Translations under genes and position numbers: made by a program
The notes under the pieces: generated by a model
Databases searched by the model: none
What the model saw: the letters and a program-made list of their open reading frames with translations, nothing else
Told to the model about the DNA's origin: nothing
From: an uncultured Methanosarcinaceae archaeon
GTDB lineage: Archaea > Halobacteriota > Methanosarcinia > Methanosarcinales > Methanosarcinaceae
Assembly: GCA_963847185.1 (NCBI GenBank)
Contig: CAWJYV010000010.1
Coordinates: forward strand, 672,001-736,000
Length of the DNA stretch: 64,000 nt
Reading direction: 5' to 3'
Part shown: positions 2,046 to 10,690 of the stretch, one piece after another
Numbering within the stretch: position 1 is the stretch's first letter
Layout of the letters: each line of letters opens with the position of its first letter

Positions 2046-2717
2046 ATGTCAGTAATATATTGGAAGAATATTTCCGGAAAGAATATACCTTCAAGCCTGG
2101 ATTTATACCCTGTAATTTATCAGTATTTACAGGATGGATACAAAATTCTCGACATTGGATGCGGTTTTGGCAAGATTAGCCTGAAACTCGCTTCCCTCGG
2201 ATATTCTGTGACAGGGATAGACATTAATCATGAGGCAATAAGGCTTTCAAAAGTAGTTGCAGAGGAGGGAAGTACTTCAGGAAAGGCTGAATTTGCAGTC
2301 GGAAATGCTTCGGTACTTCCTTTTTCTGGAAAAAGTTTTGATCTTGCAGTCATGCAGGCTTTTCTGACCTCTGTACCTGACGCGCAGGAAAGAATAAAAA
2401 TCATAAAGGAAACCTTCAGGGTACTGAAACCCGGAGGCTGTCTCTATCTTGTAGAATTTGGACAGAACTGGCACCTTAAACTTTATAGGAACCGTTATCT
2501 CAGGGATTTCCCAGTTACAAAAGAAGAAGGATCTTTCCTTGCCCATAACCCTGAGACCGGAAAAGTAGAGTATATAGCACATCATTTCTCCGAAAAAGAA
2601 CTTGTACTTCTGATGGTAAATTGCGGGTTTGACATCGACTATTTCAGGATTGAAGAACTCAAAACCAGAACCGGAAATAAAATTAATGGTTTTGTTATCA
2701 TTGCTAAAAGACTTTGA
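2046..2717 (+). CDS. Class I SAM-dependent methyltransferase
   Basis: ILDIGCGFG motif I, GIDI, FDL, LKPGG. Confidence 0.9.
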   Translation: MSVIYWKNISGKNIPSSLDLYPVIYQYLQDGYKILDIGCGFGKISLKLASLGYSVTGIDINHEAIRLSKVVAEEGSTSGKAEFAVGNASVLPFSGKSFDLAVMQAFLTSVPDAQERIKIIKETFRVLKPGGCLYLVEFGQNWHLKLYRNRYLRDFPVTKEEGSFLAHNPETGKVEYIAHHFSEKELVLLMVNCGFDIDYFRIEELKTRTGNKINGFVIIAKRL

Positions 2718-2855
2718 AGTTCCGTGTTTCATCTTCACAGAGCTTATTTTAAGTGTTGGATCTGGGTAAATCTTCAGACTCACATCATTTTCTTCTTTAT
2801 CAGTATCTCCTCATCACTATCTTCCCATCACTATTTTTTCATCACTGTTTTCTCA

Positions 2856-3182
2856 TCAATTTATTCTGTCACTTAGATGAAGTCCAACTACGCCTGCCAC
2901 GACAAAGAATAGGGATGATATTTTAAGTGTGTTTACCGGTTCTTTAAAAAAGAAAATCCCAATAACAGTAATGAGAGCTGTCCCAAGCCCTGCCCATATT
3001 GCATATGCGATACTTACATCTATTCCCTTAAGGGAAAGGGTAAAAAAATAGAAACTGATGGCATAAAATACGAAAATTAAAATGGAAGGAAACAATCTTG
3101 AAAAACCCTCAGAAAGTTTCATGCATGTGGTTCCACAGACTTCAAAAACAATTGCCAGTAAGAGCAGGTAGTAATAATTCAT
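2856..3182 (-). CDS. SMR/DMT small multidrug efflux protein (EmrE/QacE family)
   Basis: 108 aa, 4 TM segments, conserved Glu in TM1 (AIVFEV), MKLSEGF, AYAIWAGLG. Confidence 0.9.
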   Translation of the reverse strand: MNYYYLLLLAIVFEVCGTTCMKLSEGFSRLFPSILIFVFYAISFYFFTLSLKGIDVSIAYAIWAGLGTALITVIGIFFFKEPVNTLKISSLFFVVAGVVGLHLSDRIN

Positions 3183-3404
3183 TAATCCACTGTTTATTTC
3201 TCCATCTATTAATTAGTTATTTTTTATTAAATTCTTCAACGATCTATTCTTGCAAAATTATATTTTTTTGATAATAGGCCAAAAAATGGTCACAATTAAA
3301 GTATCATACTTATTTTCTCCAGTTAAAACAGCCGCTGAAGCCTGTAAATTATTTTTTTCATTTTGTAATTTCTGTTCTTATGTATACTGCACATCCTAGA
3401 TACA

Positions 3405-3564
3405 TTTATATAGTATGAGAGCTTGGGTCATATTAGCAGTAAAAATAAAGAGCCATATAATCTGTTATTAAAAACCTCATTTTTGTTTTTAATAAAAGAG
3501 CGTATAGATCTTATTTTTATAGCAGCCTAAATGTATATCCGCTATAAGCGGAGGTGAAACAAAA
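3405..3564 (+). promoter_or_regulatory. TATA box plus conserved structured leader, copy 1
   Basis: TTTATATA at 3405; stem TTATTAAAAAC/GTTTTTAATAA; hairpin TCCGCT-ATA-AGCGGA overlapping SD GGAGGTGA. Confidence 0.7.
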
Positions 3565-3789
3565 GTGAGTTTTAGTGACAGAGGAGGGCATTCCTTCAGA
3601 GGAAGAGATAGCAATCGGGGAAGTAGAGACAACAACCGTGGTGGTTTCAGAGGCGGCAGCAGCGGACCCAAAGAAATGTACCCAGCGGTTTGTTCTGACT
3701 GTGGCGTTGAGACCCAGGTTCCATTCAAGCCAGCTGAAGGAAGACCTGTTTACTGCAGAGACTGTCTCCCAAAACACAGAAAATTCTAA
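3565..3789 (+). CDS. CxxC-x17-CxxC domain protein with RGG-rich N-terminus, copy 1
   Basis: CSDC...VPFKP..GRPVYCRDC; SD GGAGGTGA; GTG start. Confidence 0.92.
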   Translation: MSFSDRGGHSFRGRDSNRGSRDNNRGGFRGGSSGPKEMYPAVCSDCGVETQVPFKPAEGRPVYCRDCLPKHRKF

Positions 3790-3989
3790 TTCCATAAATT
3801 CTGCATCTTCTAAGTTTTAGTGTTATAAATGGAAATCTCTGGAAACAGAATTTCCAAATCCACTTTATTCTAATGCTTATTTAACTCAAACTCTACAATT
3901 GATTTCACCTATGCTCTAGAAGCTGATTTATTACAACAATCTCCCGATTTTGAGGAAGACGCTTTTATCCTTTTGGTTCTCTGGATTAG

Positions 3990-4139
3990 TTATATATAAC
4001 ATAAACAGATTTTTACAATTAGTAAAAATAATAAGACATAATCTGTTATTGAAAACTTCATTTTCGTTTTAAATAATAAATTATCTCTTATCATATTTTT
4101 ATAAATTATTTTATCCGCTATAAGCGGAGGTGAAACAAA
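3990..4139 (+). promoter_or_regulatory. TATA box plus conserved structured leader, copy 2
   Basis: TTATATAT at 3990; same ATAATCTGTTATT..AAAAC and ATCCGCTATAAGCGGAGGTGAAACAAA blocks. Confidence 0.7.
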
Positions 4140-4364
4140 ATGGGTTTTAATGACAGAGGAAACTCCTTCAGGGGAAGAGACAGCAGCCGGGGTGGCAGAG
4201 ACAGCGGCCGTAGTGGTGGTTTCAGAGGCGGTAACAGTGGCCCCAGAGAAATGCACAAGGTTACCTGTTCTGACTGCGGGGTTGAGACTGAAGTTCCGTT
4301 CAAACCAACCGAGGGACGGCCAGTGTACTGCAGAGAATGCCTTCCTAACCACAGAAAATTCTGA
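4140..4364 (+). CDS. CxxC-x17-CxxC domain protein, copy 2
   Basis: CSDC...EVPFKPTEGRPVYCREC; RG-rich N-terminus. Confidence 0.92.
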   Translation: MGFNDRGNSFRGRDSSRGGRDSGRSGGFRGGNSGPREMHKVTCSDCGVETEVPFKPTEGRPVYCRECLPNHRKF

Positions 4365-4568
4365 AATTTAATATCTCACTCGTAAGTGTTGATCTATAAA
4401 TTAATATATCAACACTTGTCCACTTTTATTCATGCTTTTTGTTAAACTTTTTTTCCCCTTCTTTCTACATCGGGCTTTAACCTCGTTTGCAAGAGTGGCA
4501 GCTTCATAACGAAGGTTACAGTAACTCAAGGTAAAAACATTTTTCACGGTATACTGATATGATAAAAC

Positions 4569-4720
4569 TTATATAATGTGATTGTATATGTAGCTCCAGT
4601 AAAATTAAGAGTCATATAATCTGTTATTAAAAACCTCATTTTTGGTTTTAATAAAAGAGCATATAGATCTTATTTTTATAGCGTATTAGGAAATCCGCTA
4701 TAAGCGGAGGTGAAACAAAA
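4569..4720 (+). promoter_or_regulatory. TATA box plus conserved structured leader, copy 3
   Basis: TTATATAA at 4569; 12-bp stem TTATTAAAAACC/GGTTTTTAATAA; SD hairpin. Confidence 0.7.
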
Positions 4721-4924
4721 ATGGGTTTTAATGACAGAGGAAATTCCTTCAGGGGAAGAGACAACAACCGCGGAGGTTTCGGAGGTCCTAAGGAAATGCA
4801 CACTGCAGTCTGCTCTGACTGCGGTGAAGAGACACAGGTACCTTTCAGGCCAGACCCTGACAGACCAGTCTATTGCAGAGAATGCCTTCCTAACCACAGG
4901 AAGCCTAGAGAGAACCGCTATTAA
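4721..4924 (+). CDS. CxxC-x17-CxxC domain protein, copy 3
   Basis: CSDC...QVPFRPDPDRPVYCREC. Confidence 0.92.
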   Translation: MGFNDRGNSFRGRDNNRGGFGGPKEMHTAVCSDCGEETQVPFRPDPDRPVYCRECLPNHRKPRENRY

Positions 4925-5064
4925 CTCTCCTAATTCATTCATAATTTTGCTTGACATATTATGTCCGTTTTGCTGCTTGGGCAGGTCAAACGGACCACTT
5001 CTTTTTATACACTTAATTAAATGCCTATCTCTATTCTATGTTGCTCTGTTTTTTCATGGTAATA

Positions 5065-5217
5065 TTTATATAATCAAACTACTATGTAGGTATAGCTAAA
5101 AATAAAGAGACGTATAATCTGTTATTAAAAACCAGTTTTTGTTTTTAATCAATAAATTATATACAATCTTGTTTTTACCTTTTATCTCTTATCCGCTATA
5201 AGCGGAGGTGAAACAAA
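5065..5217 (+). promoter_or_regulatory. TATA box plus conserved structured leader, copy 4
   Basis: TTTATATA at 5065; same conserved blocks. Confidence 0.7.
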
Positions 5218-5442
5218 ATGGGTTTTAATGACAGAGGAAATTCCTTTAGAGGAAGAGACAGCAGCAGGGGCGGCAGAGACAGCGGCCGTAGTGGCGGTTT
5301 CAGAGGTGGCAACAGTGGCCCCAGAGAAATGCACAAGGTTACCTGTTCTGACTGTGGGGTTGAGACTGAAGTTCCGTTCAAACCAACCGAAGGACGGCCA
5401 GTGTACTGCAGAGAATGCCTTCCTAACCACAGAAGCTTTTAA
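5218..5442 (+). CDS. CxxC-x17-CxxC domain protein, copy 4
   Basis: Identical to copy 2 protein except the penultimate residue (K/S). Confidence 0.92.
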   Translation: MGFNDRGNSFRGRDSSRGGRDSGRSGGFRGGNSGPREMHKVTCSDCGVETEVPFKPTEGRPVYCRECLPNHRSF

Positions 5443-5708
5443 ATATAATATATGATTTGAGTGTTAGTTTCATTTAATCTGGATTAACACTCTCTTCATT
5501 TCACTATTTGTTTTTTATTCCTTGTTTTTCATCTTTGTTTCTGTGAAAGCATTCCGTAGCCAGAACGTAATAAATTAACTCCATATGTTTGGAACAGTAA
5601 ATACGTTTAACGGCAATGATGAAAGAAAAACAATTGGAATGGAATAGAAAACATCTAAAACTAATATTGAGATTATTGAAATAAATTATCAGGATTGGAG
5701 GAATTAAT

Positions 5709-6059
5709 TTGGCTAATTACAGAAGCACTATTAGAAAGAAACAAGTAGGATCCAATAAACCGGTAGGCATGGGGGATACTCCTGAAGTAACGAGGGTGCG
5801 CACTCCTCGAAAGGACAGAAATGAAGTTCTGGCGACGGTCGGAAGCCTCTTAGGTTCAAAAAGAGTTACTCTCCAATGTATGGATGGAGTAGTCCGAATG
5901 GGCAGGATCCCCGGCTCCAAGAATAAGAAAATGTGGATTAGGGAAGGCGATATTGTGATTGCTAACCCGTGGGAAATTCAGGACTCAAAAGCTGATATTA
6001 CATGGAAATATACAAGACCTCAGATCGAATGGCTTGAAAGAAAAGGGTACCTTAATTAA
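5709..6059 (+). CDS. eif1A: Archaeal translation initiation factor aIF-1A
   Basis: RVRTP...LLG..RV...[22 protein letters not shown]...PW...KADI.W.Y; SD GGAGG before TTG. Confidence 0.93.
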
Positions 6060-6176
6060 GTATTTAAGTTAATTAAATAAATTAAGGTAATTAGTGATTA
6101 AATAATTTGATAATTTGATAACTGAATAATTAGATGGTTAAAATTAAGGTACTTAAGATTTCTTTTATTAAATAAG

Positions 6177-6345
6177 TTATAATAGCTTTTCAATTTTGAG
6201 CAGTCTATCAGCTTCTTCTTTGCTCAAAATTCCTTTCATTAATATAGCTTCTTTAACAGGTATTTTCTTCTTAAGCACTTCTTTCGCGATTTCTGTTGCT
6301 TTAAGGTGCCCTATTTTAGGAGCAAGGGTGGTTACCGAGCAGGAC
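6177..6345 (-). pseudogene. C-terminal remnant of class II fumarase/aspartate ammonia-lyase
   Basis: SVTTLAPKIGHLKATEIAKEVLKKKIPVKEAILMKGILSKEEADRLL matches the family C-terminal domain; rest of the gene is absent. Confidence 0.7.
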
Positions 6346-6949
6346 TTAGTTAATCCTGCATTCGGAAGGTTAACGCAGTTAGAGCCCACATTCCGCAGTA
6401 TTTTTTGAAAATCACTATTTTTTCCGATAGCGTTTTTGGAACATCTCAAAATAATCTAAAATCAAAATGAAACTCGATGAAAATTGAATGCTATCGTTTT
6501 TTGGCCTCTAATTCATACATACCCACCTTTAATTCCTGCACAAAAATCCAATAAATTTACGTTAAATTGAAAATCGATAGCATTAAACACTATTAAAATA
6601 TGAAATTTTACTGCGGAAAGTGGGTTAGAGATATATATTTTCACATAAAGCAGAGTACATGCTACCGCCAGCCAATTTCCAAACTTCACCTATCCCACTT
6701 AAAACCTTTGAGACTAATTATCAGAAACCAGAATCAAACCGATTGTAATCAGGTATGCGCTCATAGATTTGACTTAATTGCAAAGCAGTCATATTATTTC
6801 TTGAAATCAACCCATGTAAGAATTTTTTTAAAATTTAATTTTGGAGTTGCGAAAACAATCGCATAAACGAGTTAGATGCAAAAATAGCGCGCAAGAATGG
6901 AGGAAAAACTCTATCATATGTAACCCCGTAAAGTTTTCGAAACAATCCC

Positions 6950-7398
6950 TTGACATGTCAAACTTGTTGCAGTAGACTCAACCACGAAGATCCTGATATT
7001 ATATTGAAATCGCATAGTTACTCTACGGACAAGCAGACTTTTTTCATCTTGGAAGCTGTCACTCAATATCTAACAGTGAAAAGCATTAAGGCAACGTTTG
7101 ATTTTCTGGCTAAGGCTGCACCTGGTAGCCGTCTTGTTTTCACATATGTTCGCAAGGACTTTCTCGATGGTCGAGTCATGTATGGCTGGGAGAAGTTCTA
7201 CAAAAAGCACGTGGTAAAAGATAAGATCTGGCTTTTCGGGATGAATCCGGATAAGTTGCCTAGCTTTCTAAATGAGTACGGCTGACAGGCAATCGAGGAC
7301 GTGGGTTACGATGAACTGGCTAAGAATATATTAAACCTACTGGTCGGACATTTGCTTCAACACCAATAGAAAGAATGGTTTATGCGGAAAAACTATAA
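6950..7398 (+). pseudogene. 3' remnant of SAM-dependent (LCM-type) methyltransferase
   Basis: TFFILEAVTQYL...APGSRLVFTY; premature TGA at 7283-7285, coding-like sequence continues to about 7398; no N-terminal half. Confidence 0.6.
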
Positions 7399-7715: not shown

Positions 7716-7973
7716 ATGTGTCATGAAATGTCCTCGGAACACTCTGATGAGTGCTGTTGCTCTGAATACTCTGAAACGTGCTGTTGCTCTGAACAGGGAT
7801 TCTTAGAAAACCTGACTGACGACCAGAAAAAGAAAATTATGATAATGCAAATAGACATGAAAATCCACGGGATGGAGCAGAAAATAAAGCATATGGAAGG
7901 CGCAATTGAAGGAAAGAAAAAGATGATAGCCAACATGAGGCAGATACAGGAAATGCTTAAACAGAATAAATAA
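7716..7973 (+). CDS. Small Cys-rich/coiled-coil hypothetical protein
   Basis: SD AGGAG; two CCCSE repeats then Met/Lys-rich helix. Confidence 0.7.
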   Translation: MCHEMSSEHSDECCCSEYSETCCCSEQGFLENLTDDQKKKIMIMQIDMKIHGMEQKIKHMEGAIEGKKKMIANMRQIQEMLKQNK

Positions 7974-8485: not shown

Positions 8486-10051
8486 TTAAACATTCACTTT
8501 GGAATTTTCAGCGGCTGAAAGGTCAGATTTCGCTGTAACCTTTTCCCCTGCTTTTTCTACCGTTTTTTCCACCGTTTTTTCTTCAATCTTTAAAGCTGTT
8601 TCGCCTTTTTCCTCATATTTTCTTCCTAGCAACCTGTCCATGACCTTACAGGTTACTAGATCTCCTGCAACGTTTACTGCAGTCCTGCACATATCAAGAA
8701 TTCTATCAACTCCCATAATAAGAGCTATCCCGCTTGTAGGGATTCCAACACTATTGAGGATCATAGCAAGAACAATAATCCCTACACCAGGAATTGAGGG
8801 AGTTCCTATAGAAGCCCCAACTGCCATAACCATAACCATCAGAAGCTGAAAAGGTCCAAGGTGTACTCCAAATACTTCGGCCAGGAAAACAGTAGCTACT
8901 CCCTGATAGAGGGCAGTTCCGTTCATATTGACTGTTGCTCCAAGAGGAATTACGAATTGAGAAATAGAGGGCCTTACACCCAGGTTTTCCTGTGCTGTTT
9001 TGAGAGTAAGGGGCATAACTGCAGCAGAACTTGAGGTTGAAAAAGCAAGAAGCAGAACATCACGGATAGCCTTCAGGAAGTCAAAGGGATTGGATCTGGC
9101 AACAAAAAAAACGATAAGGAGATTCAGACCCATCATAAGAGCAAGACTTACAAGCACTGTGGCTACATATACAACCATTCCCATCAGGGCATCGACACCG
9201 AGTTTAATGGTAAATTTGGTAAGTAGTCCAAAAACTGCAACCGGGGCAAGTGACATGCTCCATTTGACTACAGTCATGCAGATAGACTGTACAGAATTCA
9301 GGAAGCTAACCATAGGAGTTGACTGTTCTTTATCCAGAGAAACAAGGGCAACACCTATAACCACTGCAAGAAAGACAACCTGCAGCATCTCTCCACTAAC
9401 CATAGCCCCAAAGGGATTGGAGGGAAAGATATTTCCCACTAGCAGAGAGGGAAAATCCAGAGCTGAAGGGTCGAAACTTAGAGCTGTAGTTACAGGCTGT
9501 GCCTTCACTCCAAGAGCGCTTTCAACAAGGTCCCCACTAATAAATCTCCCGGGATGAATATAGAGCGCCATCTTCAGCCCTATAGCAGTTGCAATTGCGG
9601 TCGTTATTAAAAAGTAAACTGCAGTAAAAAGCCCTGTCTTTTTAAGTTCATTCATGCTCTGTGAAGCAACCCCAAGAATAATTGAGGCAAAAACAAGAGG
9701 GACAACAATCATCTTCAAGAGCGCGAGAAAAATGTAACCAGGAAGAGCAATCCATTCTCCTATTATTTCTGCAGAAGCCGGGTTAACGTATCCTCCAAGA
9801 GGCCCTAGAAAAAGCCCTAGAACTATCCCAAGACCCATGCTTATCAGGATTTTCAGCCAGAGTTTCTTTTCAAGAAGGTCGTGTAGATTGCGACTCAAGT
9901 CTTTAAGATAATTATTGCGTCTTAAATCCAGAGGGGAATAGATTCGAGTAATTCCTTCTGAAATCTCATGACCAAGTACCTTCGTTTCCTCAGCGAGTTC
10001 ATGCGTGAATTTTTTGGGGTCAGGAATGAAATGGTTGTTTCGGGCTTTCAT
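8486..10051 (-). CDS. Dicarboxylate/amino acid:cation symporter (DAACS, GltP-like)
   Basis: LLKMIVVPLVF, AFSTSSSAA, PLGATVNMNGTA, GVDRILDMCRT. Confidence 0.95.
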   Translation of the reverse strand: MKARNNHFIPDPKKFTHELAEETKVLGHEISEGITRIYSPLDLRRNNYLKDLSRNLHDLLEKKLWLKILISMGLGIVLGLFLGPLGGYVNPASAEIIGEWIALPGYIFLALLKMIVVPLVFASIILGVASQSMNELKKTGLFTAVYFLITTAIATAIGLKMALYIHPGRFISGDLVESALGVKAQPVTTALSFDPSALDFPSLLVGNIFPSNPFGAMVSGEMLQVVFLAVVIGVALVSLDKEQSTPMVSFLNSVQSICMTVVKWSMSLAPVAVFGLLTKFTIKLGVDALMGMVVYVATVLVSLALMMGLNLLIVFFVARSNPFDFLKAIRDVLLLAFSTSSSAAVMPLTLKTAQENLGVRPSISQFVIPLGATVNMNGTALYQGVATVFLAEVFGVHLGPFQLLMVMVMAVGASIGTPSIPGVGIIVLAMILNSVGIPTSGIALIMGVDRILDMCRTAVNVAGDLVTCKVMDRLLGRKYEEKGETALKIEEKTVEKTVEKAGEKVTAKSDLSAAENSKVNV

Positions 10052-10690
10052 AGGGGATCACAGGGAAAATGTATGGGTTGGAAAGGGGATCGTTTTTAGG
10101 GGGTTTTGCTGAATTGGAAATTACATTCTCATTAGATTATATAAAAGCTTAGATAAACATATAACAATTTTTAAGCAATGGTTTTACAGGAAAAAGATTC
10201 ACTAAAACTTTTTGATTTGTACTTAAAAAACCTTGAGTAACTATAAAAAGATTCAATCTTTTGATTTAACGTTTATTAATTAATCCGAGAATAGAAAATG
10301 AATTTTTTTATTCAAGCAATCTTAACTTGTGTCAGTTGTTCCTTTTTATTCCTTTAAGTTTTCAGGGACCGTGGGAGTTAAGGTATTTTTGGTCTGAGTG
10401 TTGATTTCCTTATGGTATGTACTACAAACATTAAGTATAATATTACTAAATATTATGGAATTAAAGAAAAGTATTAAATATAAGTTAGTCGTACATATTT
10501 ATGCTAGATGAACAGACAAAAAACAGAAAAGCCTCCTAGATCTGTAAAGTGAGTTTACAACTCCTGAATTCCTCACCTGTATGTGCAGGCAGGTGAGGGG
10601 CTTCAGGTTTAAGGGATGGGCAAAAAATCATCAATATGGGAATTACTGGGACTGTTTTAACTGTTACACCTTTTAAGTATAATACTATCT

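Follow-up and report, generated by a model that had tools for sequence, protein, structure and literature searches.

A tandem array of RG/RGG-tailed zinc-knuckle genes with private leaders of predicted structure beside aIF-1A in a Methanosarcinaceae archaeon: a candidate RNA-binding family

Small proteins with the CxxC-x17-CxxC pattern have been described in Methanosarcina mazei, where eight of them (A00184, A01980 and six paralogues) were seen by mass spectrometry (Herdering et al., 2025, PMC12704099). According to the available part of that report, two homologues were purified over heparin and found to bind zinc when examined with ICP-MS, and the authors suggested a role in transcription from a cysteine spacing common to TFIIB-family ribbons. 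The growth conditions given there include standard growth, salt, virus, heat (42°C) and starvation; cold is not among them (PMC12704099). Here, we analyzed four tandem genes of this kind in a stretch of 64,000 nucleotides (nt), hereafter the window, from an uncultured Methanosarcinaceae archaeon (GenBank assembly GCA_963847185.1, contig CAWJYV010000010.1, positions 672,001 to 736,000, forward strand). Their products agree with the M. mazei proteins in family, size and multi-copy state, as well as in the MxFNDR N-terminus and the PRENR(R)Y or HRKF C-terminus; unlike in our reading, RGG tails and nucleic-acid binding go unmentioned for this group in the available part of the M. mazei report (PMC12704099). 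We propose, with middling confidence, that the family protein is an abundant general RNA-binding protein that aids RNA or translation and is itself under leader-mediated post-transcriptional control.

A described parallel is provided by the stand-alone TRAM proteins, which have been shown to act as archaeal cold-shock chaperones: they are cold-induced, bind RNA and complement the Escherichia coli mutant BX04 (Zhang et al., 2017, PMC5572242, as far as its available part reports). Like the array proteins they are small (~60-80 amino acids, aa), multi-copy and often tandem in the same methanogen family, and they were proposed to be general RNA chaperones. In contrast, TRAM is a beta-barrel devoid of zinc or an RGG tail, its fold is unrelated, and its experimental record stands against array proteins known here from sequence (PMC5572242). 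The bacterial CspA family also comprises multi-copy small nucleic-acid-binding proteins with long leaders, in which alternative leader/start structures were proposed to control translation; yet the array proteins lack the cold-shock domain, the leader sequence is unrelated and the temperature dependence in our case is a fragile prediction. A further likeness is found in plant glycine-rich zinc-finger RNA chaperones (RZ-1 type, and those combining a cold-shock domain with CCHC fingers), which join Gly/Arg-rich low-complexity segments to zinc knuckles and melt nucleic acids. These, however, are eukaryotic, carry a retroviral-type CCHC knuckle instead of the Cys4 treble-clef-like one, and possess an extra RRM or cold-shock domain.

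The array spans positions 3565-5442 of the + strand of the window, with the aIF-1A gene next downstream, and consists of the following genes (labels g1 to g4 refer to these genes, while handles of genera are always preceded by the word genus):

3565-3789, + strand: g1, GTG start, 74 aa, RG/RGG tail and CxxC-x17-CxxC zinc knuckle
4140-4364, + strand: g2, ATG start, 74 aa, family member
4721-4924, + strand: g3, ATG start, 67 aa, shorter tail, PRENRY C-terminus
5218-5442, + strand: g4, ATG start, 74 aa, near-identical to g2

Alignment of the four proteins revealed a common pattern composed of M-x-F-x-D-R, an RG-rich tail, G-P-[RK]-E-M, C-S-D-C, 17 residues and C-R-x-C, in which the cysteines C43, C46, C64 and C67 are invariant and several other residues near the zinc site (P35, E37, M38, V52, P53, F54, P56 and R60-Y63) are strongly conserved. 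The N-terminal tails consist to 46-51% of Arg and Gly, with 1-3 RGG and 4-7 RG/GR dipeptides per tail, and the isoelectric points of the proteins are 8.5-9.6. All four match NCBIfam TIGR04272 (72-74 bits; curated cut-off 36) and Pfam PF23477 (zf_Tbcl_2; 68-70 bits; curated cut-off 27), and are ordinary members of this catalogued family. Purifying selection acts on the genes: dN/dS (the ratio of non-synonymous to synonymous substitution rates) is 0.04-0.14 in the five computable gene pairs, dS of the g1-g3 pair being saturated. Most pairs are old duplicates (dS ~1.2) and only g2/g4 is recent (dS 0.28; 2.0 non-synonymous and 11.0 synonymous differences). An earlier note, made from the letters of the window, had described four tandem paralogs of 67-74 aa with RG/RGG tails and a CxxC-x17-CxxC finger, followed by aIF-1A; the open reading frames (ORFs), the alignment and the hidden Markov model (HMM) matches bear this out, and on all points that can be judged from sequence alone the description is right.

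The multi-copy, or dosage, character claimed in the same note extends well beyond the array. The genome holds 11 family copies: the four array genes, one outside the window, 14 kb upstream of it, five on contig C4 and a divergent one on contig C8. Same-genus genomes possess 3-13 copies. The five C4 copies lie over 16 kb and belong to a repeated unit of a few hundred bases (aligned 300-nt copies overlap to ~470 nt), the units being placed between unrelated genes for methyltransferases, a dehydrogenase, a TrmB regulator, an insertion sequence-like element and Fic. In another family of the phylum (f10), we found tandem arrays of 3-4 copies with ~200-bp spacing (G078:C1:582095-582607; G115:C74:8243-8966; G131:C29:234841-235325, and others), so amplification of the family gene is recurrent. 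Members are present in 39/61 genomes and 11/16 genera of the taxonomic family of the window, and in 80/151 genomes of its phylum. In total, 2683 clusters of 40-130 aa match the family at E up to 0.001, and 600 of 603 candidate stretches were confirmed in contigs sampled at one genome per species, the range comprising methanogens, Thermoplasmata, Bathyarchaeia, Nitrososphaerota, DPANN, Asgard archaea and a few bacteria. TIGR04272 and PF23477 are unmentioned in the literature searched, which also contained nothing relevant on archaeal RGG zinc-finger small proteins linked with DEAD-box. The product of sORF_06, highly translated and with four cysteines, may be a family member (PMC11456600).

The domain architecture of longer homologues points to RNA. 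Among 98 such proteins, eight combine full DEAD and Helicase_C domains with PF23477, and one more carries PF23477 and Helicase_C only; the helicase fusions are ~420 aa long, with the knuckle at the extreme C-terminus. Another ten of the 98 join an Ssb-like OB fold (PF21473) to PF23477 through an RG linker, many homologues of 100-116 aa consist of two knuckles connected via an RG-rich linker, and a methyladenine glycosylase domain and a SET domain are fused once each. Tails in other genera are RG/GGS-rich and variable in length, with longer GGS/RGG repeats. This is how a nucleic-acid-binding module is built, with RNA enzymes as its most frequent partners; the RGG tails and the fusions to DEAD-box helicases and OB folds support the nucleic-acid-binding reading already offered in the earlier note. 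In the AlphaFold2 model of the g2 protein, residues 1-35 are of low confidence (tail pLDDT, the per-residue confidence measure, ~50), while residues 38-72 form a compact knuckle (pLDDT block means 79-88) with a beta-hairpin that bears the first CxxC and a short helix following the second. The protein would then combine a disordered basic RG/RGG tail with a Cys4 treble-clef-like zinc knuckle and, if it binds RNA as the tail suggests, may serve as an RNA chaperone or annealer, or as an accessory of the initiation machinery. Searching sequences of solved structures with a family protein gave nothing below E 0.29, and Foldseek against the PDB returned a non-significant best E of 0.47, with PHD and MCM zinc fingers in the top rows.

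Homologues are deposited as 'CxxC-x17-CxxC domain-containing protein' or, in several sources, as 'DNA-directed RNA polymerase'. Together with the transcription role put forward for the M. mazei proteins (PMC12704099), this naming suggests a factor acting in transcription or on DNA, namely an RNA polymerase subunit, a TFIIB-like zinc ribbon, or a chromatin or single-stranded DNA-binding protein. The fusions to the Ssb-like OB fold and to the single glycosylase and SET domains agree with such a factor, as does a weak resemblance to MCM zinc fingers (sequence E 0.3, fold E 1.1-1.2), and the RpoP/Rpo12 zinc ribbon (PF03604) is likewise a small Cys4 protein with similar cysteine spacing. Yet RpoP has no RG-rich tail, none of the four array proteins matches PF03604 at E up to 0.1, and the single RpoP match of the genome (C10:435438-435536) is separate from the array; because the model is unmatched and a separate rpoP gene is present, the polymerase name looks misannotated. 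With DEAD-box RNA helicases as the commonest fusions and all structural matches non-significant, we consider a transcription or DNA factor quite unlikely.

One could also imagine that many small, abundant Cys4 copies mainly hold zinc as a buffer or store, which would agree with the zinc binding shown for the homologues (PMC12704099) and with their high copy number and detectability. Such a store would, however, contain one zinc site per 67-74 residues and would leave without explanation the strong conservation of non-cysteine residues around that site, the conserved RG-rich tails and the fusion of the domain to RNA helicases. Metal genes are not recurrent neighbours either, the sole ZIP transporter among 30 loci being that of L110. 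We hold a storage role to be highly improbable.

The RNA-binding reading also draws on the regions upstream of the genes. The elements recognized around the array are the following, those with a promoter or terminator function being putative:

3406..3413, + strand: TATA-like box of g1, placed by position and invariant TATATA columns; candidate promoter element
3442..3518, + strand: long imperfect inverted repeat of the g1 leader (predicted 5' stem-loop), 34-nt arms, 76% complementary; from the consensus structure
3461..3475, + strand: g1 leader core TCTGTTATTAAAAAC (C10:675461), 5' arm of a local hairpin, also complementary to codons 2-6
3539..3557, + strand: g1 hairpin CCGCT-ATA-AGCGG overlapping the Shine-Dalgarno sequence, GGAGGTGA, read from the sequence and invariant in the four genes
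3990..3997, + strand: TATA-like box of g2, placed by position and four-way alignment
4042..4056, + strand: g2 leader core with one mismatch, TCTGTTATTGAAAAC (C10:676042)
4115..4133, + strand: g2 pre-start hairpin with Shine-Dalgarno sequence, from sequence and alignment
4384..4417, + strand: inverted repeat after g2, then a T-rich run; terminator-like, putative terminator
4569..4576, + strand: TATA-like box of g3, placed by position and four-way alignment
4600..4678, + strand: long imperfect inverted repeat of the g3 leader (predicted 5' stem-loop), 33-nt arms, 79% complementary
4695..4713, + strand: g3 pre-start hairpin with Shine-Dalgarno sequence, from sequence and alignment
4963..4995, + strand: inverted repeat after g3, then a T-rich run; terminator-like
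5066..5073, + strand: TATA-like box of g4, placed by position and four-way alignment
5118..5149, + strand: g4 leader core with a local 9-bp AU hairpin (C10:677118), an inverted-repeat pair
5193..5211, + strand: g4 pre-start hairpin with Shine-Dalgarno sequence, from sequence and alignment
5452..5499, + strand: inverted repeat after g4, then T-rich runs; terminator-like, with the same layout behind the family gene in other pairs with aIF-1A

The TATA-like boxes are invariant across the four genes and lie 150-159 nt before the start codons, and the conserved leader block begins 115-123 nt before them; the leader length of about 120 nt is an estimate, as it derives from the TATA position and not from a mapped transcription start. 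The array thus probably consists of four monocistronic units with ~120-nt leaders, in keeping with the earlier note, which had assigned a promoter and a long leader to each gene; alignment, box positions, leader identity and consensus fold now corroborate a promoter-like box and the leader. Contigs from RNA libraries (four runs from four studies) cover the ORFs, the leaders and the spacer between g4 and aIF-1A, and a single contig (5405-6050) runs from the end of g4 through aIF-1A; they provide weak consistency only, since neither starts and ends nor strand or level can be read from such contigs, in which DNA may also be present. A scan for bacterial-type terminators gave 0 sites and one for sigma-70 promoters 9 against 9.7 expected, which is not a meaningful comparison for an archaeon.

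A common leader precedes 10 of the 11 family copies in the genome, as well as copies in genus g13 and genus g2, and the pre-start hairpin CCGCT-ATA-AGCGG occurs in 6 of these 10 conserved leaders. Between paralogues the leaders are 73-89% identical, compared with 26-56% upstream of the TATA box; as this identity persists while synonymous sites approach saturation, it speaks for constraint on the leader and against recent copying. RNAalifold run on 64 distinct leaders yielded a long AU-rich 5' stem-loop with 24 pairs in three helices. Pairing is kept in 98.0% of 1530 cells, against 40-53% in slid controls; there are 17 double-change cells at 2 pairs, and none of 500 shuffles attained values as high. 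Since the 64 leaders are close kin, these statistics lend the stem-loop moderate support and do not prove it. No Rfam family matched the leaders at E up to 1 within 2800-6800, nor did any reach the gathering score in the loci of 12 relatives.

The leader core TCTGTTATTAAAAAC is in addition complementary to codons 2-6 (GxTTTTAATGACAGA). A genome search found the motif nowhere else, and its reverse complement, within 2 mismatches, coincides exactly with the ORF starts. The resulting long-range helix between leader and ORF is the minimum-free-energy fold for g1, g3 and g4 and is kept in 94.2% of cells; in the predicted folds it excludes the 5' stem-loop, and the reverse. We keep this helix as a hypothesis only. 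As we picture the system, each copy would possess its own TATA box, a terminator-like element and a ~120-nt leader folding into the AU-rich 5' stem-loop, whose core might instead base-pair with codons 2-6 of the ORF behind it; through this alternative pairing the leader could set mRNA stability or translation, possibly via autoregulation or temperature. In other genera (genus g3, g4, g10 and g16; L012-L038), the family genes have a different, longer, conserved leader of 159-304 nt, in which a conserved block CAGTTAGCTTA... starts ~30 nt after the TATA box and a predicted stem of 11 pairs shows no compensatory changes.

Using partition-function models, we compared accessibility of the start region (AUG to +18) in the 64 leaders and in 80 control genes of the same genome. 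Mean accessibility of the leaders at 10, 25, 37 and 45°C was predicted at 0.26, 0.22, 0.20 and 0.18, respectively, and that of the controls at 10, 37 and 45°C at 0.41, 0.46 and 0.49. At 37°C, values below 0.15 were predicted for 66% of the leaders versus 1% of the controls. A cold-open trend (difference between 10 and 45°C above 0.2) was found in 15/64 leaders and 0/80 controls, and the opposite trend in 1/64 leaders. Within the array, the start regions of g1 and g3 are predicted to be closed and those of g2 and g4 open. Being a fragile prediction, the folding trend is a reason to test for a thermosensor and not evidence of one.

These figures bear on a strict cold-shock module, in which cold-induced RNA chaperones would stand in for CspA and the leader would act as a cold-ON switch like that of cspA mRNA; the earlier note had likened the locus to cold-shock genes. 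Along with the cold-open leaders, such a module would account for the multi-copy genes with long conserved leaders, for the absence of any cold-shock-domain match in the genome (99.8% completeness) and for the fusion to DEAD-box helicases, among which cold-shock helicases are found. However, 49/64 leaders lack the cold-open trend, the result depends on the assumed transcript ends, and of 78 loci from named genomes just one has a cold-shock-domain-like ORF near the family gene. The array proteins themselves match neither the cold-shock domain PF00313, at E up to 0.1, nor, in the Pfam profile search, the TRAM domain PF01938. Three tandem small TRAM-domain genes do occur in the genome (C7:86859-87569, + strand; frames of 74-79 aa), in a layout much like that of the studied array, and TRAM is an established chaperone family (PMC5572242). 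The literature searched contains no report on low-temperature expression of the family, and the main text of the M. psychrophilus paper on transcription start sites mentions neither zinc nor initiation factor nor helicase. Hence we judge a strict cold-shock module unlikely, and the cold-shock label for the array is unsupported.

Linkage with the gene for translation initiation factor aIF-1A forms the second contextual clue for the RNA-binding reading. The gene next to the array comprises:

5697..5701, + strand: Shine-Dalgarno sequence GGAGG of aIF-1A, 7 nt before the TTG start
5709..6059, + strand: aIF-1A, a 'type B' paralogue with N-terminus LANYRS... and TTG start, recognized by HMM matches

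This ORF matches NF003085 with 167.2 bits (cut-off 92), TIGR00523 with 122.9 (102.9) and PF01176 with 66 (30.2). The genome contains 4 aIF-1A hits (C7:730557-730862 on the - strand, C4:191025-191321, C10:658540-658833 and window 5709-6059), 3 of which follow the domain match of a family gene at a distance of 277-327 nt, and in six same-genus genomes 16/23 aIF-1A hits lie just downstream of one; these linkage counts were read by eye from two coordinate tables. One adjacent pair is present in each of four genomes of genus g13 and in 1/2 genomes of genus g2, and a Methanocellaceae record (L101) shows the same gene order; in the other 13 of the 16 genera of the taxonomic family we detected no adjacency. 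Over the 78 loci, the aIF-1A profile likewise placed adjacency in Methanosarcina-like records and L101 and in no other lineage. The linkage with aIF-1A anticipated in the earlier note is thus upheld by synteny, which extends from the same genus to genera g13 and g2 and a single Methanocellaceae record: the link is real, repeated and phylogenetically narrow, and could be a cassette propagated by segmental duplication.

Sequence comparison separated two old aIF-1A paralogue types, A and B, with one of each in most genera. Type B is present in 3-4 copies in genera g1, g13 and g2, and all linked copies are of this type. Its genes start with a Leu codon 6-7 nt after a Shine-Dalgarno sequence GAGG: among 35 genes from several genera, CTG was found in 30, TTG in 4 and ATG in 1. 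A conserved non-AUG start on an initiation factor brings infC to mind. The literature searched contains nothing on a non-AUG or CUG start of aIF1A, and a term search for 'initiation factor' in the available part of a related M. mazei Ribo-seq paper gave no hit. In three genomes of genus g13, a TATA box and a family leader with the core motif and the CCGCT hairpin belong to the linked aIF-1A itself. In L056, L062 and L064 of this genus, the family-type promoter and leader stand directly before aIF-1A with no intervening zinc-finger ORF; this leader looks captured from, or left by, a lost family gene. In L056 and L064 a long GTTT microsatellite lies just upstream of it.

In our proposal, the family gene would travel with the amplified type-B aIF-1A as a duplicated two-gene module, which would tie the protein to translation initiation. 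A stronger claim, that the amplification reflects selection on the pair, would explain why order and spacing recur in dispersed copies of three genera and one Methanocellaceae record, why a family-type leader precedes aIF-1A in the three genus g13 genomes, and why type B keeps a CTG/TTG start (34/35), suggestive of special translational control; aIF-1A, moreover, belongs to the OB-fold proteins, and elsewhere the knuckle occurs in fusion with an OB fold. Against selection on the pair stand the 13 of 16 genera in which the genes are non-adjacent, the 7 of 11 family copies of the genome without a neighbouring aIF-1A, and the terminator-like element between the two genes, and we regard it as rather unlikely. 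Predictions of a complex of type-B aIF-1A with the zinc protein (alignments A6 and A5) scored 0.00 and 0.00 against a mark of 0.32, and speak neither for nor against binding. Very improbable as a whole is the boldest version, in which the zinc protein and type-B aIF-1A would form an alternative translation-initiation module amplified as a unit, a condition-dependent (e.g., cold-ON) or autoregulated initiation switch. In it, the zinc protein might load or melt mRNA at the 30S subunit together with type-B aIF-1A, one structured-leader family that toggles between the 5' stem-loop and a start-sequestering helix might govern both, and the CTG/TTG start of type-B aIF-1A might be a further control point.

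As for other neighbours, Pfam was run on 150 of 367 listed neighbour ORFs (L101-L130), and the other 217 were covered by profiles that we had built for aIF-1A and DEAD-box proteins and by a short cold-shock-domain motif. Translation genes are scattered among the 30 diverse archaeal loci (ProRS, Tyr/TrpRS, NAC, TrmO, a ribosome-binding GTPase, deformylase/Fmt), and a DEAD-box gene lies within 3 kb in 6/78 loci, one being a fusion. In two Methanocorpusculum loci (L108 and L109), peptide deformylase and formyltransferase genes follow the family gene, an unusual pair for an archaeon. Genes for class I S-adenosylmethionine (SAM)-dependent methyltransferases were found near family genes in the window (2046-2717, + strand), in the C4 cluster (L092:2763-3350 and 9777-10340, both - strand) and in two distant archaea (L118:871-1599; L119:666-2654). 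This proximity could be chance; arginine methylation of the RGG tails is conceivable. For the short ORFs 6177-6449 (- strand) and 6950-7285 (+ strand), just downstream of the array, matches are confined to the C-terminal end of fumarase C or to part of a leucine carboxyl methyltransferase domain, and these ORFs are likely gene remnants. The ORF at 7716-7973 (+ strand) encodes 85 aa, its N-terminus being rich in Cys, with CCC and CCCS runs, and its tail in Lys and Met; it has no Pfam match.

Several observations weigh against the general RNA-binding protein with a regulatory leader that we favor. Heparin binding and RGG tails would equally fit DNA binding, and neighbours in the 30 archaeal loci are mostly unrelated to RNA. 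Adjacency to aIF-1A was found in 1/71 loci (L101-L171), almost all outside Methanosarcinaceae, and the pairing may have arisen by accident in one lineage, where segmental duplication then spread it. As to the leaders, their kinship inflates the shuffle counts and the Mann-Whitney p-values, relatedness alone being able to beat all shuffles. The leader:ORF helix shows no significant covariation (1 double-change pair; 48/500 shuffles reach its score), and in other genera the complementarity was absent (z from -1.4 to +1.8). The predicted g1 fold flipped when the assumed 5' end was moved by 4 nt, and a strong translational block at 37°C cannot apply to all of the copies because the M. mazei homologues are readily detected at that temperature, as the available part of that report indicates (PMC12704099).

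Compared with the literature searched, the helicase and OB fusions, the module of the zinc-finger gene with type-B aIF-1A and a private structured leader able to pair with its own start region are new. Three independent context clues point to RNA and translation: the fusions, the joint amplification of the family gene with a single aIF-1A paralogue, and the conserved structured leader private to the family. The family is very large and widespread, and few small proteins of M. mazei are detected more readily than its members. The context clues narrow an 'unknown zinc protein' to a short list of bench tests in the genetically tractable Methanosarcina.

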